A DNA stretch of 32,000 nt from Gemmata obscuriglobus (GCF_008065095.1 NZ_CP042911.1:6840001-6872000); one strand, 5' to 3'; counted from the first letter of the stretch, positions 12,894-32,000 are shown. Numbers and translations: made by a program. The notes: generated by a model from the sequence alone, not told the origin.

Positions 12894-15800
12894 ATGCCCG
12901 TCCGTTCCTGGGTCCGCAAGCTGTTCGACCGCACCCCCGCCCGGCCGATCGTCCGCCCTCGCTCGAAACTGGCGGTGGAAGCTCTGGAAGACCGGGCCGT
13001 ACCGGCCACCTTCGCCGTCACCAGCCTGCTCGACAACGGCAGCGCCGGCACCCTCCGGTGGGCCGTCGACCAGGCCAACGGCACGGCCGGGGCGGACACG
13101 ATCACGTTCGCCCCGGGGGTAGCCGGGGGCACGATCGTGCTGACGGGCGGCCAACTTGCGCTCACGGACTCGGCTCAGACCACCATCGACGGCGGGGCGA
13201 CCGGGGTGACCCTGGACGGCAACAACGCGTCCCGGCTGGTCTTCGTGAGCCCCGGCGCGAGTGCCGCACTGAACCGTCTGACCATCACTCGCGGCCGAGC
13301 CGATAATTTGGATGGCGGCGGCATCTACAACTCCGGCGGCACGCTCGCGGTGTCGGCCAGCACCATTACCAACAATTCGGCCAGCTTCGGCGGTGGTATC
13401 TCGAACTTCAATGGCACGCTCACGGTCACGGCCAGCACCGTGGCCAACAACTCGGCCACCGTCGGCGGCGGGATCTACAACTCCGGTTCGGCGGCGGTTA
13501 CGGTCAGCACCGTCGCCAAAAACTACGCCGGTAGTGCCGGCGGTGGCATCCACAACGTCGGCGGGGCAATCGCGGTGTCGGCCAGCACCATTGCCAACAA
13601 CGCGGTCCGGATTGGGGACGGGGCCTTCGGCGGCGCGGGGATTTACAACAGCAGCGGCACGGCGACCCTGGCAAGCACGATCCTGACCGACGGGACAGCC
13701 GGCGACAACCTGTCCGCGTCGAGCGCGAACAACCTGCTGGTGGGTAGCGGGTCGGTGGGCGGGCTGAGCAATGGGGCGAACGGGAACGTGGTGGTGCCGA
13801 CCGCCGACGCCGCGGGCCTGGACCCGGTCGGGCTGAAGGACAACGGGGGGCCGACCCTGACCATCGCCCTGCTGCCCACCAGCCCGGCCATCGGGGCCGG
13901 GCCGTTCGCCGGCGGTGCGACCGTGGACCAGCGCGGGTACGGTCGCCCGGCGGCCGGCAACATCGACCTCGGCGCGTACCAGACGACCGCCGCCCCGCGG
14001 GAGGCCGATTCGCTGGTGGTCACCACCACCGCGGACGCGGTGAACGCGTTCGACGGGGTCACCAGCCTGCGCGAGGCGGTGGAGTACGCCAACGCGCGCG
14101 CCGGTGCCGACACGATCACCTTCGCCTCGGGCGTGGCCGGCGGTACCATCGTGCTAACCGGCGATCAGCTCACGCTTACGGACGCGGCGCAGACCACCAT
14201 TGACGGCGGGGCGGCGGGTGTCACCCTGGACGGCAACAACGCGTCCCGGGTGCTGTTCGTGGGCACTGGAGCGAGTGCCGCCCTGAACCACCTGACCATC
14301 ACCCGCGGCCGGACTCTAGATGGCGCCGGCATCTACAACCAGGGCACGCTCACGGTGTCGGCCAGCACCATCGCCAACAACAACGCCTCCTTCGGTGGTG
14401 GCATCTCGAACTATGGCACCCTTACCGTCACGGGAAGCACCGTGGCCAACAACGGGAGCTACCATGGCGGCGGCATCTTCAACCGTGCTTCGGCGACGGT
14501 GACGGCGAGCACCATCGCCAACAACTACGCCGATGATTCCGGCGGCGGCATTAGCAATGTCGGCGGCACGATCGCGTTTTTGTCTAGCACCATTACCAAC
14601 AACGCGGCCAGTCGTGTGAGCGGGGGGGGGGGCGGGGGCATTTACAGCAGCGGCGCCACGACGACCCTGACGAGCACGATCCTGACCGACGAGCTTGTCG
14701 GCGCCGACCTGTCCGCGTCGAGCGCGAACAACCTGCTGGTGGGGAGCGGGTCGGTGGGCGGGCTGAGCAGCGGGGCGAACGGGAACGTGGTGGTGCCGAC
14801 CGTGGCCGCGGCCGGCCTGGACCCGGCTGGGCTGAAGGACAACGGGGGGCCGACCCAGACCATCGCCCTGCTGCCCGGCAGCCCGGCCGTCGGAGGCGCG
14901 GCCACGAACGCGGGTGCCACCGACCAGCGGGGCGTGGCGCGGGACGCGCGGCCGGACATCGGGGCCTACGAGTTCACCGACTTCCGCCCGTCGCTGGTGG
15001 TGACCACGCTGGCGGACGAGGACGACGGCACGTCCGACTCCCGGTTCGGTTCGGGCACCAGCCTGCGGGAGGCGGTGGAGTACGCCAACGCGCACCCGGG
15101 TGCGGACACCATTACGTTCGCCCCGGGGGTGGCCGGCGGCACCATCGTGCTGACGCGCGGGCAGCTCGCGCTCACGGACGCGGACCAGACCACCATTGAT
15201 GGCGGTGCGGCGGGTGTCACCCTGGACGGCAACAGAGCGTCCCTGGTGCTCTTCGTGGGCACCGGCGCGAGCGCGACCCTGAACCACCTGACCATCACCC
15301 GCGGCTGGGGCGACGGGAGCGGCGGCGGCATCCACAACCAGGGCACGCTGACGGTATCGGCCAGCACCATCGCTGGTAATCGGGCCAACTACGGTGCTGG
15401 CGGCGGCATCTATAACCAGGGCACGCTGACGGTGTCGGCCAGCACCATCGCTGGCAACTGGGCTATCCACGGTGGCGGCATCTACAACCGGGGTACGCTG
15501 ACGGTGTCGGCTAGCGCCATCGCTGGTAACTCGGCCGTCCTTTACGGGGGTGTCTGCAACGATGGCGGCGTGCTGACGGTATCGACTAGCACCATCAACA
15601 ATAACTCGGCCGATATCAGTTACGGCGGCATCTACAACTCCGGTTCGGCGGCGGTGACGGCGAGCACCATCGCCAACAACTCCGCCCGTGATGCCGGCGG
15701 TATCTACAACTACGGTGGCACGCTGACGGTGTCCGCCAGCACTATCACCAACAATGCCGGCGGCATCCAAAACAGCAGCGGCACGGTGACCCTGACAAGT

Positions 15801-18800
15801 ACGATCTTGACCGACGGCTACACCGGTAACGACCTGTCGGCGTCGAGCGCCAACAACCTGCTGGTGGGGAGCGGGTCGGTGGGCGGGCTGAGCAATGGGG
15901 CGAACGGGAACGTGGTGGTGCCAACTGTGGCCGCCGCGGGCCTGGACCCGGCCGGGCTGAAGGACAACGGGGGGCCGACCCAGACCATCGCCCTGCTGCC
16001 CGACAGCCCAGCCATCGGGGCCGGGCCGTTCGCCGGCGGTGAGACCGTGGACCAGCGGGGGTACGGTCGCCCGGCGGCCGGCAACATCGACCTCGGCGCG
16101 TACCAGACGACCGCCGCCCCGCGGGAGGCCGATTCGCTGGTGGTCACCACCACCGCGGACGCGGTGAACGCGTTCGACGGTGTCACCAGCCTGCGGGAGG
16201 CGGTCGCATACGCCAACGCGCGCGCCGGTGCCGACACGATCACGTTCGCCCCGGGCGTGGCCGGCGGTACCATCGTGCTGACGCGCGGCCAGCTCGCGCT
16301 GAACGACTCGGCGCAGACCATTATTGATGGCGGGGCGGCGGGTGTCACCCTGGATGGCAACAACGCGTCCCGGGTAATCCTGGTGAGTTACGGGGCCACT
16401 GCCGCCCTGAACCACCTGACCATCACTCGCGGCCGCGACGACAATTATGATGGCGGCGGCATCTACAACCAGGGCACGCTGACGGTGTCGGCCAGCACCA
16501 TCGCCAACAACTCGGCCCGCGTCGGTGGTGGCATCTCGAACTATGGCACCCTTACTGTCACGGGAAGCACCGTGGCCAACAACTGGGGCTACCATGGCGG
16601 CGGCATTTTCAACCATGTTTCGGCGACGGTGACGGCGAGCACCATCGCCAACAACTACGCCGATGATTCCGGCGGCGGCATTAGCAACGTCGGCGGCACG
16701 ATCGCGGTGTCGGCTAGCACCATTACCAACAACACGGTCCGGATTGGGGGCGGGGCCGCTGGGGGTAGGGGTATTTACAGTAGCGGCGCCACGACGACCC
16801 TGACGAGTACGATCCTGACCGACGGGTTCGTTGGCTACAATGGCCTGTCGGCGTCCAGCGCGAATAACCTGCTGGTGGGGGGCGGGTCGGTGGGCGGGCT
16901 GAGCAACGGTGCGAACGGGAACGTGGTGGTGCCGACCGTGGCCGCCGCGGGCCTGGACCCGGCCGGGCTGAAGGACAACGGGGGGCCGACCCAGACCATC
17001 GCGCTGCTGCCCGACAGCCCGGCCATCGGGGCCGGTATGGCCGGCGCGGGTGCCACCGACCAGCGGGGGGTGGCGCGGGACACGCGGCCGGACATCGGGG
17101 CCTACGAGTTCGTTGCGTATCGCCCGTCGCTGGTGGTGACCACGCTGGCGGACGAGGACGACGGCACGTCCGACCCGGGTTTCGGTTCGGGCACCAGCCT
17201 GCGGGAGGCGGTGGCGTACGCGAACGCGCACCCGGGTGCGGACACCATCACGTTCGCCCCGGGGGTGGCGGGGGGCACGATCGTGCTGTCGCGCGGGCAG
17301 CTCGCGCTCACGGACGCGGACCAGACCACCATCGACGGCGGTGCGGCGTGGGTGACCCTGGACGGCAACAACGCGTCCCGGGTGATCCTGGTGAGTTACG
17401 GTGCCACTGCCGCCCTGAACCATCTGACCATCACCCGCGGCCGCGCCGACAATTATGATGGCGGCGGCGGCATCTACAACCAGGGCACGCTCACGGTCAC
17501 GGCGAGCACCATCACCAACAACTCGGCCACCGTCGGCGGCGGCATCTCTAGCATCGGTTCGGCGGCGGTGACGGCGAGCACCATCGCCAACAACTCGGCC
17601 GATAATTCCGGCGGCATCTCGAACTACGGCACGCTGACGATGTCGTCCAGTACCGTGGCCAACAACTCGGCCAACTCTTTCGGCGGCGGCATCTCGAACT
17701 ACGGCACGCTGACGATGTCGTCCAGTACCGTGGCCAACAACTCGGCCAACTCTATCGGCGGCGGCATCTACAATCGGGGCACGCTCACGGTGTCGGCGAG
17801 CACCATCGCCAACAACTTGTCCCGTTATATTGGCGGCGGCGGCATTTATAGCCTCGGCAGCATCCTGACGATGTCGGCCAGCACCGTTGCCAACAACTCG
17901 GTCCTTTCTGGCAAAGGCGGCGGCATCTACCTTGATAGCGGCATCCTGACGGTGTCGGCGAGCACGATCGCTAACAACTCGGCCAATTCTGGCGGCGGCA
18001 TCTACCTTGATGGCGGCATCCTGACGGTGTCGGCGAGCACCATCGCTAACAACTCGGCCAGTAACGGCGGCGGCATCTTCAACCAGGGCATGGCGAACCT
18101 GCCGAGAACGACCCTGACGAGCACGATCCTGACCGACGCGTTCGGCGGCGACGACCTGTCCGCGTCCAGCGCGAACAACCTGCTAGTGGGGAGCGGGTCG
18201 GTGGGCGGGCTGAGCGGCGGGTTGAACGGGAACGTGGTGGTGCCGACCGCCGCCGCCGCGGGCCTGGACCCGGCCGGGCTGAGGGACAACGGGGGGCCGA
18301 CCCAGACCATCGCCCTGCTGCCCACCAGCCCGGCCATCGGGGCCGGTGGGGCCGGCACGACGACTACCGACCAGCGGGGGGTGGCGCGGAACGCCAACCC
18401 CGACATCGGGTCGTTCGAGACGCAAGCGTCGACCGTAGGGGTGACCATTGCCGGCGGGGTTTATCGTGGGACGGCTTACACGGTGACGGCCGCGACCGTC
18501 GCCGGCACCAACGGCGCGACCCTCGCCAGCTTCGGCAGCCCGGCGCTGACGTACACCTACTACGCCGGCGCCCTCACCGCGGCCCAGGTCGCGGCAGCAA
18601 CCCCGCTGGCTGACGCCCCAATCAACGTCGGCACCTACACCGTTGTCGCCACCTTCACCAGTGACGCGTTAGGCTACCGGAGCGCGGTCAGCAGCCCGGT
18701 CTCGTTCACCATCACTCCGGCAACGGCCTTTGTGGTCGTGGCCGATTCGGCCTACGAGTACGACGGGCAGGCCCACGGGGCGAGCCTAGTGCAGGCTGTC

Positions 18801-21800
18801 GGCGTCGGCGGGGCCGACCTGAGCGGGTTCGTCTCCCTCAGCACCCTGTTCACCGACGCCCCCGGCGGCACCGCCACCTGGACGTTCGACGCCGGCCCCA
18901 ACTACGTTTCCGCCAGCGGCTCGGTGTCGATCATCATCTCCCCGCGGGGGGGGGCCTGGGTGACCGACGCGGCCGGCAAAACGTATGGCGACGCGGACGC
19001 CGCCTCACTGACCACCGGCGCCGGGAGCGGGTTTGTTGAGGCCGATGGGGTGACGGCCACGTACACCCGGCAGGCCGGGGAGAACGCGGGCAGTTACGCC
19101 ATCACCGCCACGCTGTCCAGCAGCCGGCTGACGGCCGCGCAACTGGCGGCCAACTACTCCATCATCAACACGGGGGCCGTGTACACCATCGGCCGGCGGG
19201 CCGCGTCCGTTTCGGCGGACGCGCTGACGAAAGTCTACGGCGACGCGGATCCCGTTCTGACCGGCACCCTCAGTGGCTTCCTGCCGGGCGACGGTGTGGC
19301 CGCCGCCTACACACGGGCGGCAGGCGAGTCCGTGGCCGGCGGCCCGTACGCCGTCACCGCCACACTCAACCCCTCCGCGGCGCTGGCGAACTACGACGTG
19401 ACCTACACCGCGGGGAGCCTGACCGTTACCCCGCGCGTGCTGACGGTGACCGCGACGGCGTCGGACAAGGTGTACGACGGCACGACTGCGGCGAGCGCCA
19501 CGCTGACCCTGGGGAACACGGTGGCCGGCGAGGTCCCGACGGCCACGTTCACGTCGGCTGTGTTCGGCGACAAGAACGCCGGCACCGGTAAGACGGTGAC
19601 GGTGTCCGGGGTCGCCCTGGACCCGGCGTTCGCCGCCAACTACACGCTGAGCGGGGTAACGACGGCGTCCGCCGTCGCCAGCATCACCGCCAAGGCCATC
19701 AGCGGGACGTTCACCGCGGCCGATAAGGTGTACGACGGCACCCGGGCCGCGACCGTGCTCACGCGGAACCTGGGCGGCGTGATCGGCCAGGACGCGGTGG
19801 CCCTGACCGGCGGCACCGCCGCGTTCGCCGACAAGAACGCGGGTGCGAACAAGTCTGTGTCGCTGACCGGGGCGACCCTGACCGGGGCCGATGCCGCCAA
19901 CTACACCCTGACCGGGGTTGCCGACGCCGCCGCCAGCATCGCCCAGCGGGCGCTGACGGTGGGCGCGACGGCGTCGGACAAGGTGTACGACGGGGGCACC
20001 GCGGCGAGCGCCACGCTGACCCTGGGGAACGCGGTGGCCGGCGAGGCCCCGGCGGCCACGTTCACGTCGGCGGTATTCGCCGACAAGAACGCGGGTGTGG
20101 GCAAGGCGGTGACGGTGTCCGGCATCGCCCTGGACCCGGCGTCCGCGTCCAACTACACGCTGAACGGTGTGACCACGGCGTCGGCCGTCGCGAACATCAC
20201 GGCAAAGGCCATCAGCGGCGCGTTCACCGCGGCCGATAAGGTGTACGACGGCACCCGGGCCGCAAATGTGCTCACGCGGAACCTGGGCGGCGTGATCGGC
20301 CAGGACGCGGTCACCCTGACCGGCGGCACCGCCGCGTTCGCCGACAAGAACGCGGGTGCGAACAAGTCTGTGTCGCTGACCGGGGCGACCCTGACCGGGG
20401 CCGATGCCGCCAACTACACCCTGACCGGGGTTGCCGACGCCGCCGCCAGCATCGCCCAGCGGGCGCTGACGGTGGGCGCGACGGCGTCGGACAAGGTGTA
20501 CGACGGGGGCACCGCGGCGAGCGCCACGCTGACCCTGGGGAACGCGGTGGCCGGCGAGGCCCCGGCGGCCACGTTCACGTCGGCGGTATTCGCCGACAAG
20601 AACGCGGGCGTGGGCAAGGCGGTGACGGTGTCGGGGATCGCGCTGGACCCGGCGTCCGCGGCCAACTACACGCTGGGCGGGGCCACCACGGCGTCGGCCG
20701 TCGCGAACATCACGGCGAAGGCCATCGGCGGCGCGTTCACCGCGGCCGATAAGGTGTACGACGGTGGGGCCGTGGCTACCGTGCTGAGCCGCAGCCTGGG
20801 CGGGGTGATCGGCCAGGACGCGGTCACCCTGACCGGCGGCATCGCGGCGTTCGCCGACAAGAACGCGAGTGCCGGTAAGACGGTCACCCTGACCGGGGCG
20901 ACTCTGACCGGGGCTGACGCCGCCAACTACACCCTAACCGGTGTTGCCGACGCCGCCGCGGCCATCGACCGGCGGGCGCTGACGGTGAGTGCGACGGCGT
21001 CGGACAAGGTGTACGACGGGAGCACCGCGGCGAGCGCCACGCTGACCCTGGGGAACGCGGTGGCGGGCGAGGCCCCGGCGGCCACGTTCACGTCGGCCGC
21101 GTTCGGCGACAAGAACGCCGGCACCGGCAAGGCGGTGACGGTGTCCGGGATCGACTTGGACCCGGCGTCCGCGTCCAACTACACGCTGAACGGTGTGACC
21201 ACGGCGTCGGCCGTCGCGAACATCACGGCAAAGGCCATCAGCGGCGCGTTCACCGCGGCCGACAAGGTGTACGACGGTGGGGCCGCGGCGACCGTGCTCA
21301 CGCGAACACTGGGCGGGGTGATCGGACAGGACGCGGTCACCCTGACCGGCGGCACCGCCGCGTTCGCCGACAAGAACGCGGGTGCGAACAAGTCCGTGTC
21401 GCTGACTGGGGCCGCTCTGACCGGGGCCGACGCCGCGAACTACACCCTGACCGGGGTGGGCGCGACCACCGCTGGCGTGGCCCGGCGGGCGCTGACGATC
21501 ACCGCCACGGGCACGAACAAGGTGTTCGACGGAACCACCGCGGCGGCCGTCACCCTGGCCGACAACCGGGTGGTCGGGGATCAACTCGCCTCGGGCTACA
21601 CGTCGGCCGCGTTCGCCGACCCGAACGTGGGTACTGGTAAGTCGGTGACGGTGACCGGGATCAGTGTGACCGGCGCCGACGCCGGCAACTACACGTTCAA
21701 CACCTCCGCAACGACCACGGCCAGCATCACCCCGGCCGCCGTAACGATCGGGCTGGCCACCGACCGCCCGGTCGCGGTGCCGGGGCTGGCCGTCACGTTC

Positions 21801-22736
21801 ACCGCCACCGTCGCCGCGGCCAACGGCGCTCCGGTGACCGGAACCGTGACGTTCAAGGACGGGAGCACCGTGCTCGGCACCGCTCCGGTGGTGAACGGCA
21901 AGGCGGTACTGACCACCGACGCCTTCCAGTACGGCAACAAGACGATCACCGCGACGTTCGCCGGCGGCGGCAACTACGCGGTCCCGACCGCCACGGCCTC
22001 GGTGGGCGTGTCGGTGGTGCCGGCGGCGATCCTGCCGGACCCGGTAACCGGGCAGAACGCGCTGTTCGTTGGCGGCACCGCAGGCGATGACGAGATCGAG
22101 GTGCTGGGTATGAGCAACAACCGGTACGCGGTGGAGGTCGGAAGCGGGTGCTGGAAGTTGTTCGATCAGACGCTCACCGGGGTGGTCGCCCGGGTGGTGA
22201 TGTACGGCGGGGCCGGCAACGACGCGATCGTGGCGAACGGCAACGTTCGGGTGCCGGTGTTCGCGTTCGGCGGGGCCGGCAACGACATCCTGGTCGGGGC
22301 CGAGAACGCCCCGAACGTGCTGGTCGGCGGGGCCGGCAACGACCTGCTCTACGCCGGCTGCGCACGGGACATCCTGATCGGCGGGGCCGGATCGGACCTG
22401 CTCTTCGGGCGGGCCGGTGACGACATGCTGATCGGCGGCTCGACGGCGTTCGACGCCAACGAGTCGGCCCTGTGGGGCCTCCAGGCGGAGTGGAACTCGT
22501 CCCGGGACCTCGGCACCCGGGTGGCCAACCTGCGCGGCACCGGGACCGGCCCGCGAGCGAACGGTAACGCGTTCCTGGTGGCCGGCGGGCCGGCCGCGAC
22601 CGTGTTCAACGACGGGGCCGGTGACTTCCTGTACGGCAGCAGCGGGCGGGACTGGTACTTCGCCAACACCACCGGCGGCGGGGTGCTGGACGTGATCGCC
22701 GGGCTCCGTGGGGATGACCTGCTGACCGAGTTGTAA
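12894..22736 (+). CDS. Giant (3280 aa) modular secreted/surface protein: N-terminal LEDR motif, 5 beta-helix plus choice-of-anchor-Q-like modules, MBG(YGX) domains, 9 YDG domains, Ig-like domain, RTX Ca-binding repeats
   Basis: ATG 12894 is in frame with track ORF 12294-22736. The upstream 600 nt overlap the sigma gene in antisense and are discarded. Motifs seen: LEALEDRAVPA; repeated GADTITFAPGVAGGTIVLT..LTD..TIDGG..VTLDGN; GGGIYN.GTLTVSASTIANNSA beta-helix rungs; NGGPTQTIALLP.SPA..DQRG..R..DIGAYE; K.YGDADP...GD....TR..GE..G.Y (MBG); KVYDG..A (YDG); and GGAGNDxLx repeated 5 times near the C-terminus. Confidence 0.85.
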   Translation: MPVRSWVRKLFDRTPARPIVRPRSKLAVEALEDRAVPATFAVTSLLDNGSAGTLRWAVDQANGTAGADTITFAPGVAGGTIVLTGGQLALTDSAQTTIDGGATGVTLDGNNASRLVFVSPGASAALNRLTITRGRADNLDGGGIYNSGGTLAVSASTITNNSASFGGGISNFNGTLTVTASTVANNSATVGGGIYNSGSAAVTVSTVAKNYAGSAGGGIHNVGGAIAVSASTIANNAVRIGDGAFGGAGIYNSSGTATLASTILTDGTAGDNLSASSANNLLVGSGSVGGLSNGANGNVVVPTADAAGLDPVGLKDNGGPTLTIALLPTSPAIGAGPFAGGATVDQRGYGRPAAGNIDLGAYQTTAAPREADSLVVTTTADAVNAFDGVTSLREAVEYANARAGADTITFASGVAGGTIVLTGDQLTLTDAAQTTIDGGAAGVTLDGNNASRVLFVGTGASAALNHLTITRGRTLDGAGIYNQGTLTVSASTIANNNASFGGGISNYGTLTVTGSTVANNGSYHGGGIFNRASATVTASTIANNYADDSGGGISNVGGTIAFLSSTITNNAASRVSGGGGGGIYSSGATTTLTSTILTDELVGADLSASSANNLLVGSGSVGGLSSGANGNVVVPTVAAAGLDPAGLKDNGGPTQTIALLPGSPAVGGAATNAGATDQRGVARDARPDIGAYEFTDFRPSLVVTTLADEDDGTSDSRFGSGTSLREAVEYANAHPGADTITFAPGVAGGTIVLTRGQLALTDADQTTIDGGAAGVTLDGNRASLVLFVGTGASATLNHLTITRGWGDGSGGGIHNQGTLTVSASTIAGNRANYGAGGGIYNQGTLTVSASTIAGNWAIHGGGIYNRGTLTVSASAIAGNSAVLYGGVCNDGGVLTVSTSTINNNSADISYGGIYNSGSAAVTASTIANNSARDAGGIYNYGGTLTVSASTITNNAGGIQNSSGTVTLTSTILTDGYTGNDLSASSANNLLVGSGSVGGLSNGANGNVVVPTVAAAGLDPAGLKDNGGPTQTIALLPDSPAIGAGPFAGGETVDQRGYGRPAAGNIDLGAYQTTAAPREADSLVVTTTADAVNAFDGVTSLREAVAYANARAGADTITFAPGVAGGTIVLTRGQLALNDSAQTIIDGGAAGVTLDGNNASRVILVSYGATAALNHLTITRGRDDNYDGGGIYNQGTLTVSASTIANNSARVGGGISNYGTLTVTGSTVANNWGYHGGGIFNHVSATVTASTIANNYADDSGGGISNVGGTIAVSASTITNNTVRIGGGAAGGRGIYSSGATTTLTSTILTDGFVGYNGLSASSANNLLVGGGSVGGLSNGANGNVVVPTVAAAGLDPAGLKDNGGPTQTIALLPDSPAIGAGMAGAGATDQRGVARDTRPDIGAYEFVAYRPSLVVTTLADEDDGTSDPGFGSGTSLREAVAYANAHPGADTITFAPGVAGGTIVLSRGQLALTDADQTTIDGGAAWVTLDGNNASRVILVSYGATAALNHLTITRGRADNYDGGGGIYNQGTLTVTASTITNNSATVGGGISSIGSAAVTASTIANNSADNSGGISNYGTLTMSSSTVANNSANSFGGGISNYGTLTMSSSTVANNSANSIGGGIYNRGTLTVSASTIANNLSRYIGGGGIYSLGSILTMSASTVANNSVLSGKGGGIYLDSGILTVSASTIANNSANSGGGIYLDGGILTVSASTIANNSASNGGGIFNQGMANLPRTTLTSTILTDAFGGDDLSASSANNLLVGSGSVGGLSGGLNGNVVVPTAAAAGLDPAGLRDNGGPTQTIALLPTSPAIGAGGAGTTTTDQRGVARNANPDIGSFETQASTVGVTIAGGVYRGTAYTVTAATVAGTNGATLASFGSPALTYTYYAGALTAAQVAAATPLADAPINVGTYTVVATFTSDALGYRSAVSSPVSFTITPATAFVVVADSAYEYDGQAHGASLVQAVGVGGADLSGFVSLSTLFTDAPGGTATWTFDAGPNYVSASGSVSIIISPRGGAWVTDAAGKTYGDADAASLTTGAGSGFVEADGVTATYTRQAGENAGSYAITATLSSSRLTAAQLAANYSIINTGAVYTIGRRAASVSADALTKVYGDADPVLTGTLSGFLPGDGVAAAYTRAAGESVAGGPYAVTATLNPSAALANYDVTYTAGSLTVTPRVLTVTATASDKVYDGTTAASATLTLGNTVAGEVPTATFTSAVFGDKNAGTGKTVTVSGVALDPAFAANYTLSGVTTASAVASITAKAISGTFTAADKVYDGTRAATVLTRNLGGVIGQDAVALTGGTAAFADKNAGANKSVSLTGATLTGADAANYTLTGVADAAASIAQRALTVGATASDKVYDGGTAASATLTLGNAVAGEAPAATFTSAVFADKNAGVGKAVTVSGIALDPASASNYTLNGVTTASAVANITAKAISGAFTAADKVYDGTRAANVLTRNLGGVIGQDAVTLTGGTAAFADKNAGANKSVSLTGATLTGADAANYTLTGVADAAASIAQRALTVGATASDKVYDGGTAASATLTLGNAVAGEAPAATFTSAVFADKNAGVGKAVTVSGIALDPASAANYTLGGATTASAVANITAKAIGGAFTAADKVYDGGAVATVLSRSLGGVIGQDAVTLTGGIAAFADKNASAGKTVTLTGATLTGADAANYTLTGVADAAAAIDRRALTVSATASDKVYDGSTAASATLTLGNAVAGEAPAATFTSAAFGDKNAGTGKAVTVSGIDLDPASASNYTLNGVTTASAVANITAKAISGAFTAADKVYDGGAAATVLTRTLGGVIGQDAVTLTGGTAAFADKNAGANKSVSLTGAALTGADAANYTLTGVGATTAGVARRALTITATGTNKVFDGTTAAAVTLADNRVVGDQLASGYTSAAFADPNVGTGKSVTVTGISVTGADAGNYTFNTSATTTASITPAAVTIGLATDRPVAVPGLAVTFTATVAAANGAPVTGTVTFKDGSTVLGTAPVVNGKAVLTTDAFQYGNKTITATFAGGGNYAVPTATASVGVSVVPAAILPDPVTGQNALFVGGTAGDDEIEVLGMSNNRYAVEVGSGCWKLFDQTLTGVVARVVMYGGAGNDAIVANGNVRVPVFAFGGAGNDILVGAENAPNVLVGGAGNDLLYAGCARDILIGGAGSDLLFGRAGDDMLIGGSTAFDANESALWGLQAEWNSSRDLGTRVANLRGTGTGPRANGNAFLVAGGPAATVFNDGAGDFLYGSSGRDWYFANTTGGGVLDVIAGLRGDDLLTEL
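13005..18420 (+). repeat. Five ~1.0-1.3 kb coding modules arranged as an alternating ~2.1 kb super-repeat
   Basis: Module starts are at ~13005, 14004, 14985, 16127 and 17121. Junction types alternate between DLGAYQTTAAPREADSLVVTT and DIGAYEF..RPSLVVTT. 13935-14056 is identical to 16058-16179 (122 bp, offset 2123). Confidence 0.8.
14622..14632 (+). repeat. G11 homopolymer inside the giant gene (codes part of SGGGGGG)
   Basis: Read directly: c-ggggggggggg-c-ggggg-c at 14621-14639. A second G9 run lies at 18946-18954. Confidence 0.9.
19434..21485 (+). repeat. Four tandem 513-bp (171-aa, two YDG domains) coding repeats
   Basis: Unit starts are at 19434, 19947, 20460 and 20973, and the next, diverged unit starts at 21486, all spaced exactly 513 bp. 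19801-20095 is identical to 20314-20608 (295 bp, checked base by base). Confidence 0.9.
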
Positions 22737-23189: not shown

Positions 23190-24023
23190 CTACTTCCTCG
23201 GTGACCGGTCGTGTTCGCGCAGTTCGGGCAACCGGTTCATCACCCAAGACAGTAGCGCGCCGTAAGCGCCTTCGTACTCGGCCAGCCGCGCGCCGAAATG
23301 CGCGGCGCGGGCGCCCGCCGCGGCGGTCACGCTCACCGCGCACTCGTCTTCGACGAACCGGAACACCCCCTTCAGATCGCCCGCGGTCTCCGTGGTGCGA
23401 ACGGTCGCGACCCACGACAGATAGCAGCGGTTCGGGTCGAGGCTCTCGAGATCCGGAATCAGCCCGAGGTCGGTCGAAACCTCGAGCAGTTCGCCGTGCT
23501 TGCCGAGGTTGCGCAGCAGCAGCAGCGGATCCATGCCGTCGGTCAGCAGCCGCGGCCCGGGCGTAATTGTCACGCGGTAGACGTGCGCCCCTTGGGGTCC
23601 CGGAGCAACCGCCGGCGGGCGTGCTTCTACCGCGCCCGAACCGCACCCGGCCGCCGTGTTGAGCGCAACAACGAGATCCGCGTCCGCCGAAGCGGGTTCG
23701 CCGGCTCGGGCCGCGGCGAACAGCCCGTGCAGCCCGTCCACCGCGCGCAACAGCAGGTCGATGCGATCGCGCGTGACCGGGAGCTGGCCCTTGCGCAACT
23801 TGTCGAGGAGCTGCTCCAGCGAGTGCGTGAGCCGGGTGATGGCCTCGAAGCCGAACACCCCGCTGCCGCCCTTGATCGAATGAGCCGCACGGAACACCGC
23901 GTTCAGCACCTCGGGGTCCGGGGCGCCGTCGCCGGCGCCCAGGAGCCCGGACTCGAGGGCCGCGAGGTGCTCGCCCGCCTCGTCCAGGAAGGTGTTCAGC
24001 AACTGGTCCATTTCGACTGGCAT
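23190..24023 (-). CDS. Hpt (CheA P1-like) phosphotransfer protein without a kinase core
   Basis: ATG at 24023, 277 aa. The P1 signature is LNAVFRAAHSIKGGSGVFG, with its His codon at 23880-23882. It is followed by HVYRVTITPGPRLLTDGMDPLLLLRNLGKHGEL...LDPNRCYLSW...VFRFVEDEC, a segment I recall seeing after P1 in some full-length CheA proteins. No P3 dimerisation, HATPase or P5 sequence follows. Confidence 0.8.
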   Translation of the reverse strand: MPVEMDQLLNTFLDEAGEHLAALESGLLGAGDGAPDPEVLNAVFRAAHSIKGGSGVFGFEAITRLTHSLEQLLDKLRKGQLPVTRDRIDLLLRAVDGLHGLFAAARAGEPASADADLVVALNTAAGCGSGAVEARPPAVAPGPQGAHVYRVTITPGPRLLTDGMDPLLLLRNLGKHGELLEVSTDLGLIPDLESLDPNRCYLSWVATVRTTETAGDLKGVFRFVEDECAVSVTAAAGARAAHFGARLAEYEGAYGALLSWVMNRLPELREHDRSPRK

Positions 24024-24034
24024 CGGTCCGCTCG

Positions 24035-24400
24035 CTAGGGGAGCAGGTCGGTAACGACCTGGACGAGTTGCGCGGCCTTGAACGGCTTCACGATCCACCC
24101 GGTCGCGCCCGCGGCCTTGCCCTGCTGCTTCATCTCGGTCTGGGACTCGGTGGTGAGCAGGATGATGGGGGTGGACTTTAACTGCGGCCGCGCGCGCGCC
24201 TGCTTGACGAACGTGATCCCGTCCATCACCGGCATGTTGACGTCGCTGATGATGACGTCCACGCGGGCGCCGGCGAGCTTGTCGAGGGCCTCCTGACCGT
24301 TGCAGGCCTCGATCACGGTGAACTTGGCGTCCGACAGGGCCATGGCGACCATTTGGCGGAACGTGAGCGAGTCGTCGACGATGAGAGCGGTTTTCGCCAC
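24035..24400 (-). CDS. cheY: CheY-like single-domain response regulator
   Basis: ALIVDDS, VIISDVNMPVMDG, ILLTT and IVKPF cover all REC acidic-pocket, T and K positions. The track start is TTG 24415. GTG 24400, preceded by GAGGA, is more likely. Confidence 0.85.
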   Translation of the reverse strand: MAKTALIVDDSLTFRQMVAMALSDAKFTVIEACNGQEALDKLAGARVDVIISDVNMPVMDGITFVKQARARPQLKSTPIILLTTESQTEMKQQGKAAGATGWIVKPFKAAQLVQVVTDLLP

Positions 24401-24411
24401 GAGAGTGGTCC

Positions 24412-25392
24412 TCAAAAGAATTCCATGGAACCCGGGGTGTCGTCACCCGCGGGGCCGGCGTCGTGCCCGGTGACGCGGTCCAGAACGCGCCGCTCGGACT
24501 GCATGGTGGCCCGCGCGCGGAGCCGGTCGAGGAGGGCCGCCGCGCCGGCCGCGTCCCCGGACGCGAGCACGGCTCGGGCCTCCCGTAGGGCCGCGGCGAC
24601 GTGGTCCAGTTGCTGGTTCACCGCGTCCTGGAACTGGAGCGCGGTCATCGCGTCCTCGATGTCCCCGGCCAGCCGCTCGGCGTCGGTCGCGGACGCGGCC
24701 ACCAGCGCCTGCATCTCGGCCTGGGACCGGGCGAGCGCGTCCAGCGCGCGGGCGCCCTCTTCGCGGCTGAGGTCGGCGGCCCGGTTCAGGTCGGCCGCGG
24801 TGTCGCTCTTGAGCAGCCCGGCCCGCATCCGCTGGGTGCTCTCGCGCACCTCCTGCCACAGCCCGTCCACCATCCCGCGGATCGACTTGGCCGTGGTGCC
24901 GATCGCTTCCGCCTGGCGCCCGGTCTCGGCGGCGACCACCGCGAACCCGCGCCCGGACTCGCCCGCGCGGGCGGCCTCGATGCGCGCGTTGAGGGCCAGG
25001 ATGCGCAGCGCGTACGAGACCCCGTCCAGGTCGCCGAGCGACCGCTCGATGCGGTCCACGCGGGTCGCGATGCCCTCGAGCCGGCGCAGCGTCTCGACCG
25101 CCTCGTCGGTGGCCCGGCGCACCTGGTCCATGCGGCCGAGCAGCGCCGTGATCGTGGACCGGGCGGCGGCCTGCGCGTCCGCGTCCGTGCCGCCGTCCTG
25201 CCCGGTCGCGCGGGCCGCGCGGGCCGCGCTCTCCTTCGACCGCCGCGCGATGCTCACGAAGCTGGTGCAGACCTGGGTCACCGCCTCTTCGACGTGCCGC
25301 GCCGTGTCCCCGATTTGGGTCGAAAGCGCTTCGAGCACCACCCCGATTTCGGGTGCTCCCGCGACGCCGGAACTGGTGCCTGCCTGAACCAT
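24412..25392 (-). CDS. Short soluble methyl-accepting-type signalling-domain protein (no TM, no HAMP)
   Basis: ATG at 25392 (MVQAGTSS...), 326 aa. The hairpin-tip signature is [26 protein letters not shown]. No hydrophobic segment is present. The track ORF extension to 25710 overlaps the STAS gene and is discarded. Confidence 0.75.
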   Translation of the reverse strand: MVQAGTSSGVAGAPEIGVVLEALSTQIGDTARHVEEAVTQVCTSFVSIARRSKESAARAARATGQDGGTDADAQAAARSTITALLGRMDQVRRATDEAVETLRRLEGIATRVDRIERSLGDLDGVSYALRILALNARIEAARAGESGRGFAVVAAETGRQAEAIGTTAKSIRGMVDGLWQEVRESTQRMRAGLLKSDTAADLNRAADLSREEGARALDALARSQAEMQALVAASATDAERLAGDIEDAMTALQFQDAVNQQLDHVAAALREARAVLASGDAAGAAALLDRLRARATMQSERRVLDRVTGHDAGPAGDDTPGSMEFF

Positions 25393-26133: not shown

Positions 26134-28086
26134 ATGGCCCGACTCGCTCCCCAGCCCGGCTCGTCGAACAACGGTCACGTCAACGGCCACGCCAGCGGTC
26201 ACAACCGGTTCGCCGAGCCGGACGCCCTGCGCCAGCGCGAGAGCGCCCGCGACCGCGCCAAGGAGAAGGCCAGCGCCCGCACCGCGGCCAAGCGCCAGCA
26301 GGCGGCCGAGCGGATCGCCACCGCCACCGAGCAGCTCACCGGGGGCGTGACCGAGGCCAACGCCGCGGTCGCGCAGCTCGAGCGGCAGATGGAGCAGATC
26401 GCCAGCGGGGCGGTCGAGTCCTCGAAGGCGGCCGAGAGCAGCCTCGCGGCCATTGAGGAAATCAACGCGGCCAGCACCCAGGCGGTCGCCGCCGCACAAC
26501 AGTCGTTGCGGAAGGTGACGAACATCCAGGAACTGGTCCGGGGCGCCAGCGGCGACATCGACCTGCTGATCCAAGGGGTCGGCGCGTCCGCGCAGGCCAA
26601 CATGGAGTCGGCGAAGCTGGTCGGGCAGCTCGAGCAGCAGAGCAACGAGATCGGAACGATCGTGGAAGCGGTGGTGCGGATCGCCGACCAGACCAACCTG
26701 CTGGCGCTGAACGCGGCCATCGAGGCGGCCCGCGCCGGGCAGCACGGTAAGGGGTTCGCCGTGGTCGCCGACGAGGTCCGCAACCTCGCCGAGACGAGCG
26801 AGCGGTCGGCCCGCAACATCCGCGACCTGGTGGAGAAGATCCAGACCGACGTGAAGCTGGTGGTGGCGGACGTGGAGAAGGCCGGCAAGGCCGCGTCGGA
26901 CGAGGTGGAGAAGGCCAAGAAGGTGACCGCCGACCTGAAGCGCGTCGCGACCGACACCGCCGAAATCCAGAAGGCGTGCGCCTCCATCAATGACGCCGCG
27001 AAGGAAGCGGCCACCGGGGCCGAGCAGTTCCAGCAGGGCGCGCAGGCCGTGGCCAGCGCCTCGGAAGAGTCCAGCGCGGCGGCCGAGGAGGCCAGCAAGG
27101 CGGTGCGCGAGCAGGGCAAGGCGCTGGAGGAGATGGGCAAGGGCGCGGACGAGCTGAGCACCATGGCCGAGGACCTGAAGACCTCGACCAACTCGGAGAA
27201 GTCGTCCGAGGAACTGGCCGCCGCCTCCGAGGAGCTGTCGGCCACCATCCAAGAGGCGAACGCGGCCGCGACCCAGATCACGGCCGCGATCACACAGATC
27301 GCCAAGGGCGCCCAGACCCAGGCCGCGGCCACGACGCAGTCGAGCACCGCGGCGAAGCAGATCGAGGCCGCGGCCCGCGCGATGCAGCACAAGGCCACCG
27401 ACTCGGTGGAGCGGGCCGACACGCTCATGAACTTGCTCACAGAAAACAAGGCCGGCGTCGAGGCCATGATCCGCGGGATCAACCACGCCGCCGAGGCGTC
27501 GATCAAGTCGGCCACCAACATCAAGGCGCTCGAGGAGCGCACCCGGATGATCGACAAGATCGTGGACGCGATCGTCAACGTCACCATCCAGACCAACCTG
27601 CTGGCGGTGAACGGCGGGATCGAGGCCGCGCGGGCCGGCGAGTACGGGCGCGGGTTCGCGGTGGTCGCGGCCGACGTCCGCAACCTGGCGGGCGAGTCCA
27701 GCGAGAACGCCGACAAGATCAAGGACCTGGTGCGCAACATCCAGAAGCAGATCGTCACCGTGGCCAGCGACATTGAGGCGTCCGGAAAGGAGGCGGCGGC
27801 CGAGGTGCTCAAGGCGAAGAAGACGACCGCCGACCTGGAGCGCATCTCCACCGACTTCGACGAAGTGCGGCGCGGGGTGATCGAGGTGAAGACCGGGCAG
27901 GACCAGGCGCTCCTGGCCATCCAGACGGCGGCCGCGGCGGTGCAGCAGATCGCGCGGGCCGCGCAGGAGGCGAGCGAGGTGTCCATACAGGCGGCGGCCG
28001 CGGCGCAGCAGGGCGCGAAGGGGATGCACGAGCTGGCGGCCGCGGTCGAGGAGATCTCGGCCCTGGCGGACGAGCTGCAGAACTAA
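26134..28086 (+). CDS. Soluble chemoreceptor with two complete MCP signalling (MA) domains (DosM-like)
   Basis: ATG 26134 follows GGAGA; 650 aa. There are two hairpin tips, [32 protein letters not shown] (tip codons from 26719) and [32 protein letters not shown] (from 27619), exactly 900 nt apart. The whole protein is Ala/Glu/Gln-rich coiled coil with no hydrophobic segment. Confidence 0.85.
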
Positions 28087-28110
28087 CCCACACCGCGAAG
28101 GAGCCAACAC

Positions 28111-29970
28111 ATGTCGGACAACACTCCCGCCGGCGCCGGGGGCGGCGGCGACCACGAGCTGGTCACCTGCGTGCTGGGCGGGGTCGAGTTCGGGATCGAC
28201 ATCAACGCGGTGCAGGAGATCGTGCGGCTGCCCAAGATCACGCCGGTGCCCCGCGCGCCGAGTTACGTCGAGGGCGTCGCGAACCTCCGCGGCAACGTGC
28301 TCCCCATCGTGAACTCGCGCGCCCGGTTCGGGATGCCCGGGGCCGGGAACGGGGACAGCAACCGCGTCGTGGTGGTCGAGCTGAACGGGGCCCCCACGGG
28401 GCTGATCGTGGACGCGGTCCGCGAGGTCATGCGGGTCAAGCGGGCGGACGTGGAAGACGCGCCGGCCGCGGTGCAGAGCGTGGACGGCCGGTTCCTCCGC
28501 GGCGTCGTCAAGCTGAACGGCGGGCAGCGGCTCGTCCTGCTGCTGGACCACAGCGCGATCATGGAGGCGGCCCGGCCCGCGGGGCGGCCGGGCGCCGCCG
28601 GGCCGACGCCCGGCGGCGACCCGGCCGCGTCCGGGGCCGCGCTCCGTGCCGCCCCCCCGACCCCGGAGCACGAGCACCTGGTCACGTTCCGCATCGGCGA
28701 GGAGGAGTACGGCGTCCCGATCATGGACGTGCAGGAGATCATCCGCGTCCCGAACATCAGCACGATCCCGAACGCCCCGGCCGGGGTGGTCGGGATCGCC
28801 AGCCTGCGGAACCGCATCCTCCCGGTGCTCGACCTGCGCACCAAGTTCGAGTTCCGCCCGCGGAAAGCGGAACTCGAGGAGTTCTGCGACAAGGTGCGGG
28901 CCTTCGAGCGGCTCTACACCGCGGCCGTCGAGCGGCTCCAGGCCGCGGTCGCGGGCCGCGGCGCGTTCGACCGCGCGCTGCTCCGCGGGCACCGCGACTT
29001 CTGCCGCTGGCAGGCCGGGTTCGCGAGCGGCGACCGGCTGCTGCACGCGCTCCTGGCCCCCCTCCGCGACGCGTTCGACGCGGGCGCGGCCGGGAAGCGG
29101 GCCGTCGCGGCCCACCTCGACGCCCGGAACTTCGCCGCGGCCCAACAGGAGTTCGACGGCCCGTTCCAGGTCGCGCACGCCCGGCTGCTGGCCGCGTTCG
29201 AGAAGCTGTACACCGGGGTCACCAGGCGGGACGACGAGCGGTGCCTCGTGGCCACCGTGAACGGCGCGGCCCTCGCCCTGCGGGTGGACGCGGTGAACCA
29301 AGTGCTTCAGGCGCCACGCGGCACGATCGAGCCGACGCCGGCGCTCGTGGCGGGGCGCGAGCAGCTCCGCGGGATCGCCAAGCTGGACGGCGGCAAGCGG
29401 CTCATCATGCTGCTCGCCGCGGACAAACTCGTTTCCCACGCGGAGCTGAGCGCCGTGACCAACCTGACCGACCGCAGCGAGGGCGCGGGCCGCGGGCCGG
29501 GCGCCGGGGGCGAGTCCGACGAGCGGCAGCTGGTGACGTTCAAGGTCGCCGGCGAGGAGTTCGCGGTGGACATCATGCAGGTGCAGGAGATCATCCGGCT
29601 GGGCAAGGTGACCAAGGTGCCGCACCTCCCCGATTTCGTCGAGGGGGTGGTGAACCTGCGCGGGCAGGTGCTGCCCGTCATCGACCTGCGGCGCCGGGTG
29701 CACCTGGCCCGCAAGGACTACTCGGACGCGACCCGCGTGGTCGTCGTGGACCTGCGGGGCACGAAGACCGGGATCATCGTGGACGCGGTGTCCGAGGTGA
29801 TGCGGGTCCGCGGCCGGGACATCGAGCCGGCCCCGCCCATCATCCGCAGCCGGTACGGGGATCACATCATCGAGGGCGTCGGCAAGCTCAACAAGGGGGA
29901 CCGGATGTTCCTGCTGTTGCGCGCCGACGAGTTGCTCAAGGTCGAGAGCGTGCCGGCCGCGTCGGCGTAA
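28111..29970 (+). CDS. cheW: Triple-CheW-domain scaffold protein, with the second CheW domain split by a ~125-aa helical insert
   Basis: AAGGAG lies 7 nt upstream of ATG 28111. Three CheW signatures are present: LVTCVLGGVEFGIDINAVQEIVRLPKITPVPRAP..VEGVANLRGNVLPIV; LVTFRIGEEEYGVPIMDVQEIIRVPNISTIPNAP..VGIASLRNRILPVLDL; and LVTFKVAGEEFAVDIMQVQEIIRLGKVTKVPHLP..VEGVVNLRGQVLPVIDL. Domain 2 resumes (CLVATVNGAALALRVDAVNQV) only after the insert at ~28855-29235. Confidence 0.85.
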   Translation: MSDNTPAGAGGGGDHELVTCVLGGVEFGIDINAVQEIVRLPKITPVPRAPSYVEGVANLRGNVLPIVNSRARFGMPGAGNGDSNRVVVVELNGAPTGLIVDAVREVMRVKRADVEDAPAAVQSVDGRFLRGVVKLNGGQRLVLLLDHSAIMEAARPAGRPGAAGPTPGGDPAASGAALRAAPPTPEHEHLVTFRIGEEEYGVPIMDVQEIIRVPNISTIPNAPAGVVGIASLRNRILPVLDLRTKFEFRPRKAELEEFCDKVRAFERLYTAAVERLQAAVAGRGAFDRALLRGHRDFCRWQAGFASGDRLLHALLAPLRDAFDAGAAGKRAVAAHLDARNFAAAQQEFDGPFQVAHARLLAAFEKLYTGVTRRDDERCLVATVNGAALALRVDAVNQVLQAPRGTIEPTPALVAGREQLRGIAKLDGGKRLIMLLAADKLVSHAELSAVTNLTDRSEGAGRGPGAGGESDERQLVTFKVAGEEFAVDIMQVQEIIRLGKVTKVPHLPDFVEGVVNLRGQVLPVIDLRRRVHLARKDYSDATRVVVVDLRGTKTGIIVDAVSEVMRVRGRDIEPAPPIIRSRYGDHIIEGVGKLNKGDRMFLLLRADELLKVESVPAASA

Positions 29971-30027: not shown

Positions 30028-31128
30028 ATGCCACTGCCCCGCGCGACTCGCCCGATCCGCGTCGTCCTGGCGGACGACTCCGCGCTCATGCGCAAGAAGC
30101 TCCGCGAGATCCTCGAGTCCGACCCGGCTCTTGAAGTGGTCGCCAGCGCGCGCGACGGCGCCGCCGCGGTCGACGCGGTGCGCGCGTTCGATCCGGACGT
30201 GGTCACGCTCGACATCAACATGCCGGTCATGGACGGCGTGACCGCGCTCCAGACGATCATGAACGAGCTCCCGCGCCCGGTGCTCATGATCAGCTCGCTG
30301 ACGCAAGAGGGGGCGCTGGCGACCTACGAGTGCCTCGAGCTGGGCGCGGTGGACGTCGTGCCCAAACTCGGGGGGACCATTTCCGCAGAAATCGAGCGCC
30401 AGAGCCGCGAGATCATCGCGAAGGTAAAGGCCGCCGCCGGCGCGCGGGTGCGGCGGTCCGGGGCGAAGCGGCTCGCCCCCCAACCCCCGCCCCCGAAGCC
30501 CGCCCCCGCCCCGCCCGCGCGCGCCGGGGGGGCCGGGGCGCACGCGGATCGGGTCGTCGCCATCGGCGTCTCGACCGGCGGACCGAAGACGCTCCAGGAG
30601 GTGGTGCCGCTGCTCCCGCCGGACCTGCCCGCGGCGGTGGTGATCGTCCAGCACATGCCCGAGACGTTCACCGCGTCGTTCGCCCGGAGCCTCGGCCGCA
30701 ACAGCCAGATGCCGGTGAAGGAGGCCGAGGCCGGTGACACCCTCCGGAACGGCCACGTCTACGTGGCCCGCGGCGGGAAGCACCTGATCTTCGCCGACCG
30801 GCGGCCGGCGAACGGGGTGATGGTGCGGTACGTCAGCCAGCCGGCGGACGCGCTACACATCCCTTCGGTGGACGTGATGATGCACTCGGCGGTCGACGTG
30901 TTCCGCTCGCAGGTCGTCGGCGTCCTGCTCACCGGGATGGGGAGCGACGGGGCCGACGGGATGGTGGCGATCCGCCGCGCGGGGGGCGAGACCATTGCCG
31001 AGGACGAGAGCACCTGTGTCGTGTTCGGGATGCCGGCCGTGGCGGCCGCGAAGGGGGGCGCGGCCCACGTGCTGCCGTGCCACGAGGTGGCCGCGAAAGT
31101 CGTGTCGTTGTTGCGCCGCAGCCGCTGA
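30028..31128 (+). CDS. cheB: Chemotaxis response regulator protein-glutamate methylesterase
   Basis: The REC domain has VVLADDS and VVTLDINMPVMDG. A Pro-rich linker follows. The methylesterase catalytic motifs are GVSTGGP, VQHMP and GMGSDG. Confidence 0.9.
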   Translation: MPLPRATRPIRVVLADDSALMRKKLREILESDPALEVVASARDGAAAVDAVRAFDPDVVTLDINMPVMDGVTALQTIMNELPRPVLMISSLTQEGALATYECLELGAVDVVPKLGGTISAEIERQSREIIAKVKAAAGARVRRSGAKRLAPQPPPPKPAPAPPARAGGAGAHADRVVAIGVSTGGPKTLQEVVPLLPPDLPAAVVIVQHMPETFTASFARSLGRNSQMPVKEAEAGDTLRNGHVYVARGGKHLIFADRRPANGVMVRYVSQPADALHIPSVDVMMHSAVDVFRSQVVGVLLTGMGSDGADGMVAIRRAGGETIAEDESTCVVFGMPAVAAAKGGAAHVLPCHEVAAKVVSLLRRSR

Positions 31129-31140: not shown

Positions 31141-32000
31141 ATGGACCTTCCGCCGGAAGAGTTCGCCCTGATCCGCGACCTGATCTACGCCCGCACCGGG
31201 CTGATGTTCGAGGACAAAAAGCGCTTGTTCCTGGCGCCCCGCGTGTCGCGCCGGGTGCGGGCCGCCCGGTGCAGCGGCCCGCGCGACTACTACCACCTGC
31301 TCCGGTACAGCGACCCCGACGGGCGCGAGTTCCAGGAGCTGGTGGACGAGGTGACCACCAACGAGACGTACTTCTTCCGCGACTACCCGCAGCTCGAGTT
31401 CTTCGCCAACGAGGTGCTGCCGCGGGTCGCGGACGCCAAGCGCGCCGCCCGCGACCACAGCCTGAACGTCTGGAGCGCGTGCTGCTCGACCGGCGACGAG
31501 CCGTACACGCTGGCCATCATTCTGGCCGCGTGCCTGGACGACTTCTCCCGGTGGGATGTCAAACTGGTGGGCACCGACATCGACACCAAGGTGCTCGCGA
31601 CCGCCCGCGCCGCGGTGTACGGCGAGCGGAACGTGAAGGACGTGGACCCGTCCTACCTCGGCAGGTACTTCGTCCCGACGCGCGGCGGGTACCGGGTCGC
31701 GGACCCGATCCGCCGGATGGTCGCGTTCGAGCGGGTGAACCTCGTGGACGACGACCGCATGAGCCGGCAGCGCGGGTTCGATTTTATCTTCTGCCGGAAC
31801 GCGCTCATTTACTTCGACGACGCCTCCCGGAAGCGGGTGCTGGCGTCGTTCCACGACGCCCTGCGGCCGGGCGGGTTCGTGTTCCTCGGCCACTCGGAAT
31901 CGGTGGGCCGGATCTCGCGGGCGTTCGAGCCGGTGCAGTTCGGCCCCGGCGGGGTGGCGTACCGCAAGCCCGGCGGGCACCGGCTCGCGGCGGCCCCCAC
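31141..32000 (+). CDS. cheR: Chemotaxis protein methyltransferase CheR (3' end beyond the window)
   Basis: This ORF is not in the supplied track because it has no stop in the window. My own translation from ATG 31141 reads MDLPPEEFALIRDLIYARTGLMFEDKKRLFL...TTNETYFFRD...NVWSACCSTGDEPYTLAI...FIFCRNALIYFD...GGFVFLGHSES. The frame is open to the last base. Confidence 0.85.
   Translation, partial: MDLPPEEFALIRDLIYARTGLMFEDKKRLFLAPRVSRRVRAARCSGPRDYYHLLRYSDPDGREFQELVDEVTTNETYFFRDYPQLEFFANEVLPRVADAKRAARDHSLNVWSACCSTGDEPYTLAIILAACLDDFSRWDVKLVGTDIDTKVLATARAAVYGERNVKDVDPSYLGRYFVPTRGGYRVADPIRRMVAFERVNLVDDDRMSRQRGFDFIFCRNALIYFDDASRKRVLASFHDALRPGGFVFLGHSESVGRISRAFEPVQFGPGGVAYRKPGGHRLAAAP

Follow-up and report, generated by a model that had tools for sequence, protein, structure and literature searches.

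A triple-CheW protein with a CZB-related helical bundle in its middle domain, encoded in a probable F9-class chemosensory cluster of Gemmata obscuriglobus

We analyzed a 32,000-nucleotide (nt) stretch of Gemmata obscuriglobus DNA (GCF_008065095.1, NZ_CP042911.1:6840001-6872000; hereafter the window, from whose first letter all positions are counted), focusing on cheW3, a single gene whose product carries three CheW domains. The gene occupies 28111..29970 on the plus strand and is preceded by a Shine-Dalgarno-like AAGGAG (28098..28103, plus strand; read directly from the sequence) located 7 nt upstream of the ATG at 28111. Its 619-amino-acid (aa) product is WP_109570806.1 of Gemmata obscuriglobus, which bears the generic NCBI name 'chemotaxis protein CheW'. 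cheW3 is the second gene in a cluster with the order dosM-like, cheW3, cheB, cheR, cheA.

Several lines of evidence indicate that the open reading frame (ORF) is genuine. Translation of 28111-29970 on the plus strand gives 619 residues with no internal stop, and homologues likewise begin with M-S-D/E. The window has a G+C content of 70%, and G+C at third codon positions (GC3) remains at 0.95-0.99 in one and the same frame, beginning in the receptor gene upstream and continuing across cheW3 into the following genes, without a dip or frame switch in the linkers, the insert or the middle of the protein. The identical 619-aa product was found on at least seven contigs and under four NCBI accessions. 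The single ORF proposed in an earlier reading made from the DNA alone (the sequence-only reading) is therefore borne out by the absence of stops, the continuous GC3 and the exact NCBI protein: cheW3 is one real, intact gene and not a merger. That reading had itself raised the concern of three genes merged by error, which GC3, the contigs and the homologues all contradict. Separate cheW genes joined by a frameshift are ruled out by the GC3 continuity, the independent contigs and the homologues, and the broader artifact, in which three cheW genes or a duplicated piece of assembly were fused through sequencing or frameshift error, merits virtually no credence: collinear homologues of the same architecture are present as 73 ORFs in many phyla, and the three CheW domains share just 37–47% mutual identity, which argues against an assembly duplication.

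Scanning the product with the Pfam CheW model (PF01584) gave 344.6 bits (cut-off 23.5, E = 3.5e-104) over four stretches, because, as internal alignment indicates, these correspond to a first domain (D1), a second domain split in two pieces (D2) and a third domain (D3). All parts lie on the plus strand. D1 (28153..28566, residues ~15-152) was delimited by internal alignment, is matched by CheW entries of the PDB over residues 26-152 and is all-beta in an AlphaFold2 model. It is followed by linker 1 (28567..28668, residues 153-186), which is 74% Pro/Gly/Ala and predicted to be disordered, with a predicted local distance difference test score (pLDDT) of <50 at 153-184. D2 consists of an N-terminal piece (28669..28857, residues 187-249), placed by the Pfam stretches and alignments, and a C-terminal piece (29230..29448, residues 374-446), placed by alignments and modeled with beta strands across 377-435. 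Linker 2 (29449..29520, residues 447-470) is 42% Pro/Gly/Ala and predicted to be partly helical, then disordered (pLDDT <50 at 454-469). Lastly, D3 (29521..29946, residues 471-612) is the most canonical CheW copy, matching the PDB entries 2qdl (Thermoanaerobacter CheW, E = 5.8e-28) and 2ho9 (E. coli CheW, E = 3.8e-25). The AlphaFold2 model, built from a 16-sequence alignment with a mean pLDDT of 74, comprises three all-beta CheW-type domains, a four-helix bundle and disordered linkers. A Pfam and NCBIfam scan of the insert and of the whole protein returned no model specific to CheW3 or to the insert. The three full CheW signatures and the Pro/Gly/Ala-rich linkers of the sequence-only reading were thus recovered by a hidden Markov model scan with domain boundaries; its three-domain description holds for the domains and their coordinates but overlooked the split of D2 by an insert of ~124 aa.

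Two motifs, V-Q-E-I and L-R, are invariant across D1, D2 and D3 in the internal alignment and are equivalent to V36/E38/I39 and R62 of E. coli CheW (numbered via the 2ho9 alignment). In E. coli CheW, the V36-I39/R62 residues couple receptor binding to kinase binding. Since V-Q-E-I and L-R are conserved in each copy, all three CheW domains look coupling-competent from their sequences. D2 is the most divergent copy and reads S-L-R-N in place of the N-L-R-G of D1 and D3, a difference that is kept across homologues.

The insert within D2 (28858..29229, plus strand; residues 250-373, ~124 aa) is predicted to fold as a four-helix bundle. In the AlphaFold2 model of the whole protein its helices span residues 251-282, 288-303, 309-337 and 341-372, with block-mean pLDDT values mostly of 81–95, and a model of the insert alone gave a confident four-helix bundle (pLDDT 91.2, predicted template-modeling (TM) score 0.82). 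The Gemmata insert has no match to Pfam CZB (PF13682) at E ≤ 0.1, nor even at E ≤ 10. However, in some planctomycete relatives at 47–54% identity the insert does match this model: the insert of homologue P0044 scored 37 bits against a cut-off of 29.4, and 6 of 19 homologous inserts were matched, the best at 2.1e-10. Alignment of Gemmata-clade with CZB-positive inserts using hhalign covered 121 columns and yielded a probability of 99.7% (E = 7e-27). On these profile comparisons the Gemmata insert is homologous to the CZB inserts found at the same site. Structural and sequence searches against the PDB were less discriminating. Foldseek matched the insert model to generic four-helix bundles, including the CZB domain of DgcZ (3t9o) at TM scores of 0.65–0.74, but unrelated four-helix bundles reached E-values as good as the 0.2–0.6 of 3t9o, and the insert sequence profile found only helical noise and no CZB entry among PDB sequences.

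The zinc site of this CZB-derived bundle has been lost in Gemmata, where the ligand columns His, Cys, His and His are occupied by Tyr, Arg, Phe and Ala. Across 58 aligned inserts, H/C/H/H is present in nine and H/C/(D or E)/H in six, and the site is lost in the rest. In the H/C/H/H relatives the ligands fall at exactly the Gemmata insertion point, and none of the closest insert-bearing homologues (P0002-P0007 and P0010) keeps the ligand set. The 120 best homologues form two length classes, with a split domain 2 in 40 and an insert-less form in the other 80. Gemmata algarum JC673 has an orthologous CheW3 (2882-4354 of its locus, L012) in a dosM-cheW3-cheB-cheR-cheA cluster, which is 80% identical to the Gemmata obscuriglobus protein over aligned columns and from which the whole insert is absent, leaving a clean junction. 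Within the genus, then, CheW3 can do without the insert. Insert-less proteins, that of G. algarum among them, are nested inside the insert-bearing clade of the domain tree, and these sequences suggest that events likely ran from an intact CZB through ligand loss to deletion.

The age of the triplication, which the sequence-only reading had left between recent duplication and ancient fusion, was addressed with a neighbor-joining tree, rooted with the CheA P5 domain, in which D1, D3 and an insert-free D2 represent each of 17 diverse CheW3 proteins. With few exceptions, D1, D2 and D3 each group by position across phyla. Mean identity between proteins at the same position is 0.53 for D1, 0.49 for D2 and 0.55 for D3, compared to 0.41–0.47 between positions within one protein. 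Judged from this grouping and these identities, the fusion is ancient and older than the spread of the family, with each position conserved in its own right. A recent triplication is ruled out by the low mutual identity of the domains and their clustering by position across phyla.

To place the locus among its relatives, we scanned one genome per species, which gave 507 relatives, and kept 80 loci, which were annotated with small profiles made from the CheW domains and receptor tips of the window and by BLAST with its Che proteins. These loci contain the 73 ORFs with at least three CheW stretches, from hosts that include Planctomycetota, Desulfobacterota, Bacillota, Gammaproteobacteria, Acidobacteriota, Leptospiraceae, Aerophobetes and Aminicenantes. 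A two-tipped methyl-accepting chemotaxis protein (MCP) lies immediately upstream of CheW3 in 60 of the 64 ORFs with enough upstream DNA, and cheB lies immediately downstream in 53 of 66, usually followed by cheR, cheY and cheA. A profile of six gammaproteobacterial CheW3 proteins retrieved 4,276 protein clusters at E ≤ 1e-20 from among the candidates that were scored. By these sequence searches, the CheW3 family is large and its cassette stable.

A few of the surveyed loci depart from this arrangement. Clostridium frigoriphilum (L029, 18447-20054) and Paenibacillus naphthalenovorans (L031, 18525-20231) have a second CheW3-type ORF after cheA with no adjoining double-tip receptor, and a CheW3 ORF is found likewise after cheA and without such a receptor in a Clostridiales metagenome-assembled genome (MAG; L066, 6573-8285); of the four ORFs that break the upstream receptor rule, these make up three. 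An uncultured Syntrophomonas sp. MAG (L043, 694-11572) carries three dosM-cheW3 pairs in series followed by a single cheB, a tandem triplication of the signature cassette. In six loci with insert-bearing CheW3 (L009, L010, L011, L016, L019 and L037, from Desulfamplus MAGs, a Pseudomonadota MAG, Deltaproteobacteria bacterium TL4 and an unclassified MAG), a CheV-like gene encoding one CheW domain and a receiver domain stands just after cheB. This gene is absent from the planctomycete loci, and a similar gene occurs further downstream in the insert-less locus L044.

The genes around cheW3 in Gemmata follow the same pattern. A dosM-like gene for a soluble receptor (26134..28086, plus strand; 650 aa) ends 24 nt before the start of cheW3 and encodes two MCP signaling domains (Pfam MCPsignal, 223 bits in two stretches), with hairpin tip motifs at residues 196 and 496, a spacing of exactly 300; the protein has no transmembrane segment (maximum 19-residue hydropathy 1.17) and no sensor domain. 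With two tips and a 24-nt gap, the position of cheW3 directly downstream of a double-tipped receptor is as the sequence-only reading had described it. Downstream on the plus strand are cheB (30028..31128; a receiver and a methylesterase, Pfam Response_reg and CheB_methylest) and cheR (31141..32000; Pfam CheR_N and CheR), the last codon and stop of which fall beyond the window end. The next gene after cheR, just outside the window on a longer contig with the same genes, is cheA, encoding a 795-aa protein with Hpt, H-kinase_dim, HATPase_c and CheW (P5) domains. The sequence-only reading had assumed a 'kinase-poor' array; as the operon continues into cheR and this full-length cheA, a kinase-poor system is ruled out.

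A divergent operon of three genes lies on the minus strand. It encodes a second soluble MCP with a single signaling domain (24412..25392, minus strand; Pfam MCPsignal E = 4e-17), for which GC3 supports the minus strand and the likely start is the ATG at 25392, within an ORF reaching 25710. This single-tip protein has no transmembrane segment and is a candidate for the receptor that would partner the DosM-like protein in the array. The other two genes encode a CheY-like single-domain response regulator (24035..24415, minus strand; Pfam Response_reg E = 6e-28) and a stand-alone Hpt protein resembling the P1 domain of CheA (23190..24023, minus strand; ~277 aa; Pfam Hpt E = 3.3e-20). The NCBIfam CheA model matched the latter at positions 2-115 only; dimerization, kinase and P5 domains are absent, and no family matches the C-terminal ~160 residues. 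The presence of a separate P1 protein beside a full CheA points to a phosphorelay that is split or branched.

Elsewhere in the window, the plus strand at 12294-22736 holds an ORF of 3,480 aa with a right-handed beta-helix region, nine YDG domains, MBG domains and an RTX nonapeptide, which looks like a giant secreted adhesin. Tandem repeats with a 75-bp (25-aa) unit lie within this ORF at 13338-13476, 15321-15534 and 17462-18090, and minus-strand ORFs of 83 and 86 aa within 19901-21178 recur with a period of 513 bp, which suggests long in-frame repeats. Two genes of the Na+/H+-exchanger family lie on the minus strand at 46-2700 and 5007-6323; in the product of the former, the exchanger is joined to TrkA-N, CBS and PTS EIIA-2 domains, and such a regulatory tail is uncommon among cation antiporters.

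A CheW3 protein together with DosM, a receptor with two signaling domains, is the hallmark of the F9 class and has been described as 'unique to this class' (Mo et al., PMC9321776). A survey of 2,781 species that used this DosM/CheW3 signature found full clusters in 64 and described partial sets as 'dosM, cheW3 and cheBR' (PMC9321776). The Gemmata locus has the marks of this class: CheW3, an adjoining soluble DosM-type receptor without a sensor domain, and cheB, cheR and cheA in the cluster. With these genes in place and cheY on the divergent operon, the set is full rather than partial. We therefore consider it very probable that the product of cheW3 acts as the coupling protein in an F9-class system of this planctomycete. 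Seen in this way, the locus is an unremarkable representative of a class already known to be widespread, with a degenerate sensor as a minor variation. The novelty implied by the sequence-only reading, in which CheW is normally a single-domain protein, does not survive this comparison, as CheW3 beside DosM is a published F9 hallmark (PMC9321776) and both 3xCheW and CheW-CZB are among the CheW architectures already identified (Muok et al. 2023, PMC10653840). A literature search for Gemmata together with CheW returned nothing relevant.

By analogy to V. cholerae cluster I, an F9 system (VC1402/VC1403) that forms double-layered cytoplasmic arrays, the soluble two-tipped DosM-like receptor and at least one other soluble receptor would form a sandwich of two receptor layers, with a baseplate of CheA-P5 and CheW domains at each end. 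In V. cholerae, the triple CheW VC1402 is part of the baseplates, and array formation does not require CheA (PMC7534058). If Gemmata is similar, CheW3 would supply three ring positions per polypeptide in each baseplate and set the local CheW stoichiometry, so that the lattice could assemble even where CheA is scarce, and flexible linkers of ~24–34 residues would give enough reach for neighboring or alternate ring positions. The idea in the sequence-only reading of a covalent CheW trimer organizing the baseplate fits the published F9 arrays; its 'kinase-poor' part is contradicted by cheA. For the insert, the explanation we favor is that the D2 bundle derives from a CZB sensor of zinc or redox state, which some relatives have kept intact, and that in Gemmata, with the metal site gone, it may be a structural attachment to the baseplate that senses nothing, or a decaying relic.

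Some points weigh against this interpretation or bound it. The F9 assignment is made on architecture and gene content, with VC1402 and VC1403 likened by published description; the placement of the three CheW domains in rings and the double-layered cytoplasmic array are both proposed for Gemmata by analogy with V. cholerae. The insert evolves faster than the rest of the protein, being 43–54% identical to its closest homologues compared to 64–73% for the CheW domains, and it has been deleted in close relatives such as G. algarum. Fast evolution and loss in relatives therefore allow for an insert without function.

Two alternatives credit the bundle with a definite function. If it were still a sensor, as has been proposed for CheW-CZB proteins, the inserted CZB would bind zinc and inform the baseplate directly of hypochlorous acid, zinc or the redox state. 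Such a role would be in keeping with the planctomycete relatives at 47–54% identity, in which a Pfam-recognized CZB with the full H/C/H/H set occupies the same position; with the recognition of CheW-CZB as a subgroup of CZB proteins in passages of Perkins et al. 2021 (PMC8262984); and with CheWS (PMC10653840), a precedent for sensing via a domain fused to CheW. In Gemmata itself, however, all four ligands, the redox-active Cys included, have been replaced, Pfam CZB is not matched even at the most permissive threshold, the nearest insert-bearing homologues lack the ligand set and close relatives have discarded the insert entirely, and we therefore regard a sensory CheW3 here as highly improbable.

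The second alternative accepts the loss of the metal site and gives the ligand-less bundle a new structural job: it would dimerize, as the CZB of DgcZ does, or dock on CheA or DosM, and pairing two CheW3 chains would bring together six domains, as many as make up one CheW ring. Its appeal lies in the compact, confidently predicted fold, in one Trp and one Phe that at least 90% of 19 inserts share even though the ligands have gone, in the persistence of ligand-less versions in Planctomycetota, Desulfobacterota, Leptospiraceae and Aminicenantes, and in the presence of DgcZ CZB among the structural matches. Those matches do not separate CZB from other four-helix bundles, though; insert-less CheW3 proteins are the majority of the best matches, and the nesting of insert loss within the insert-bearing clade marks the insert as dispensable. 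A structural role of the ligand-less bundle, such as dimerization, is speculative, and we think it unlikely, if less so than sensing, that the bundle has been given such a job. It is similarly doubtful that Gemmata and many other lineages have kept a former CZB sensor as a folded bundle and re-used it as an element of cytoplasmic-array architecture; if true, a sensor domain would have been converted into lattice hardware. A CZB-derived bundle that has lost its site and has become a structural appendage without sensing, or a relic, is the reading that we retain.

Overall, the locus changes little for the field, as a triple CheW with a double-tipped receptor is already a textbook marker of F9 cytoplasmic arrays, and by itself it makes the physiological role of F9 systems no more tractable. 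It does provide a planctomycete example of the full set of F9 genes, and the separate conservation of each CheW position argues that the three ring positions are non-equivalent. What is added is the CZB bundle inside D2 of CheW3, with the Gemmata copy as a ligand-less derivative: this links 3xCheW and CheW-CZB, which are listed apart in the literature. The bundle exists in three states within the CheW3 family (intact, ligand-less and deleted), a series through which the contribution of a sensor domain at the baseplate could be explored.

Relative to known systems, the Gemmata protein combines familiar parts. Like canonical single-domain CheW (2ho9 and 2qdl), D1-D3 each align over the full CheW fold and share the V36/E38/I39/R62 equivalents; unlike it, the Gemmata protein has three covalently joined copies, and its D2 has a weakened N-L-R-G motif (S-L-R-N) as well as the insert. 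In Treponema denticola CheWS, a CheW-CheR-like protein, a CheW domain likewise anchors an extra domain at the baseplate (PMC10653840), but CheWS has one CheW domain and a C-terminal CheR-like sensor that binds S-adenosylmethionine, and belongs to membrane-bound arrays of the F2 class with neither a triple CheW nor DosM. The CheW-CZB proteins, in the passages of PMC8262984 that concern them, join a CheW-domain protein to a CZB-type four-helix bundle as in Gemmata, whose copy differs in failing Pfam CZB and lacking all four zinc ligands. In the CheW3 family the bundle is set inside the middle domain and is not a terminal fusion, a placement those passages do not describe.

The closest parallel is V. 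cholerae cluster I. VC1402, its CheW3, similarly has three CheW domains in one polypeptide (PMC7534058, PMC9321776), and a profile search for it with gammaproteobacterial CheW3 proteins gave no V. cholerae entry among the 120 matches listed, nor does V. cholerae figure in the 80 loci of the survey. The gammaproteobacterial CheW3 proteins recovered, from Pseudomonas, Halomonas, Oceanobacter and Methylotuvimicrobium, are encoded by ORFs of ~510–535 aa with three CheW stretches and are 29–31% identical to the Gemmata protein (38% for Oceanobacter). They lack the ~124-aa helical insert that Gemmata has in D2. Gemmata, unlike V. cholerae, belongs to the phylum Planctomycetota, and its cheY and further receptor are on a divergent operon, whereas in V. 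cholerae they are in line. In both, cheW3 adjoins the gene for a soluble receptor with two signaling domains (DosM, VC1403, in V. cholerae), and both clusters hold cheB, cheR and cheA.

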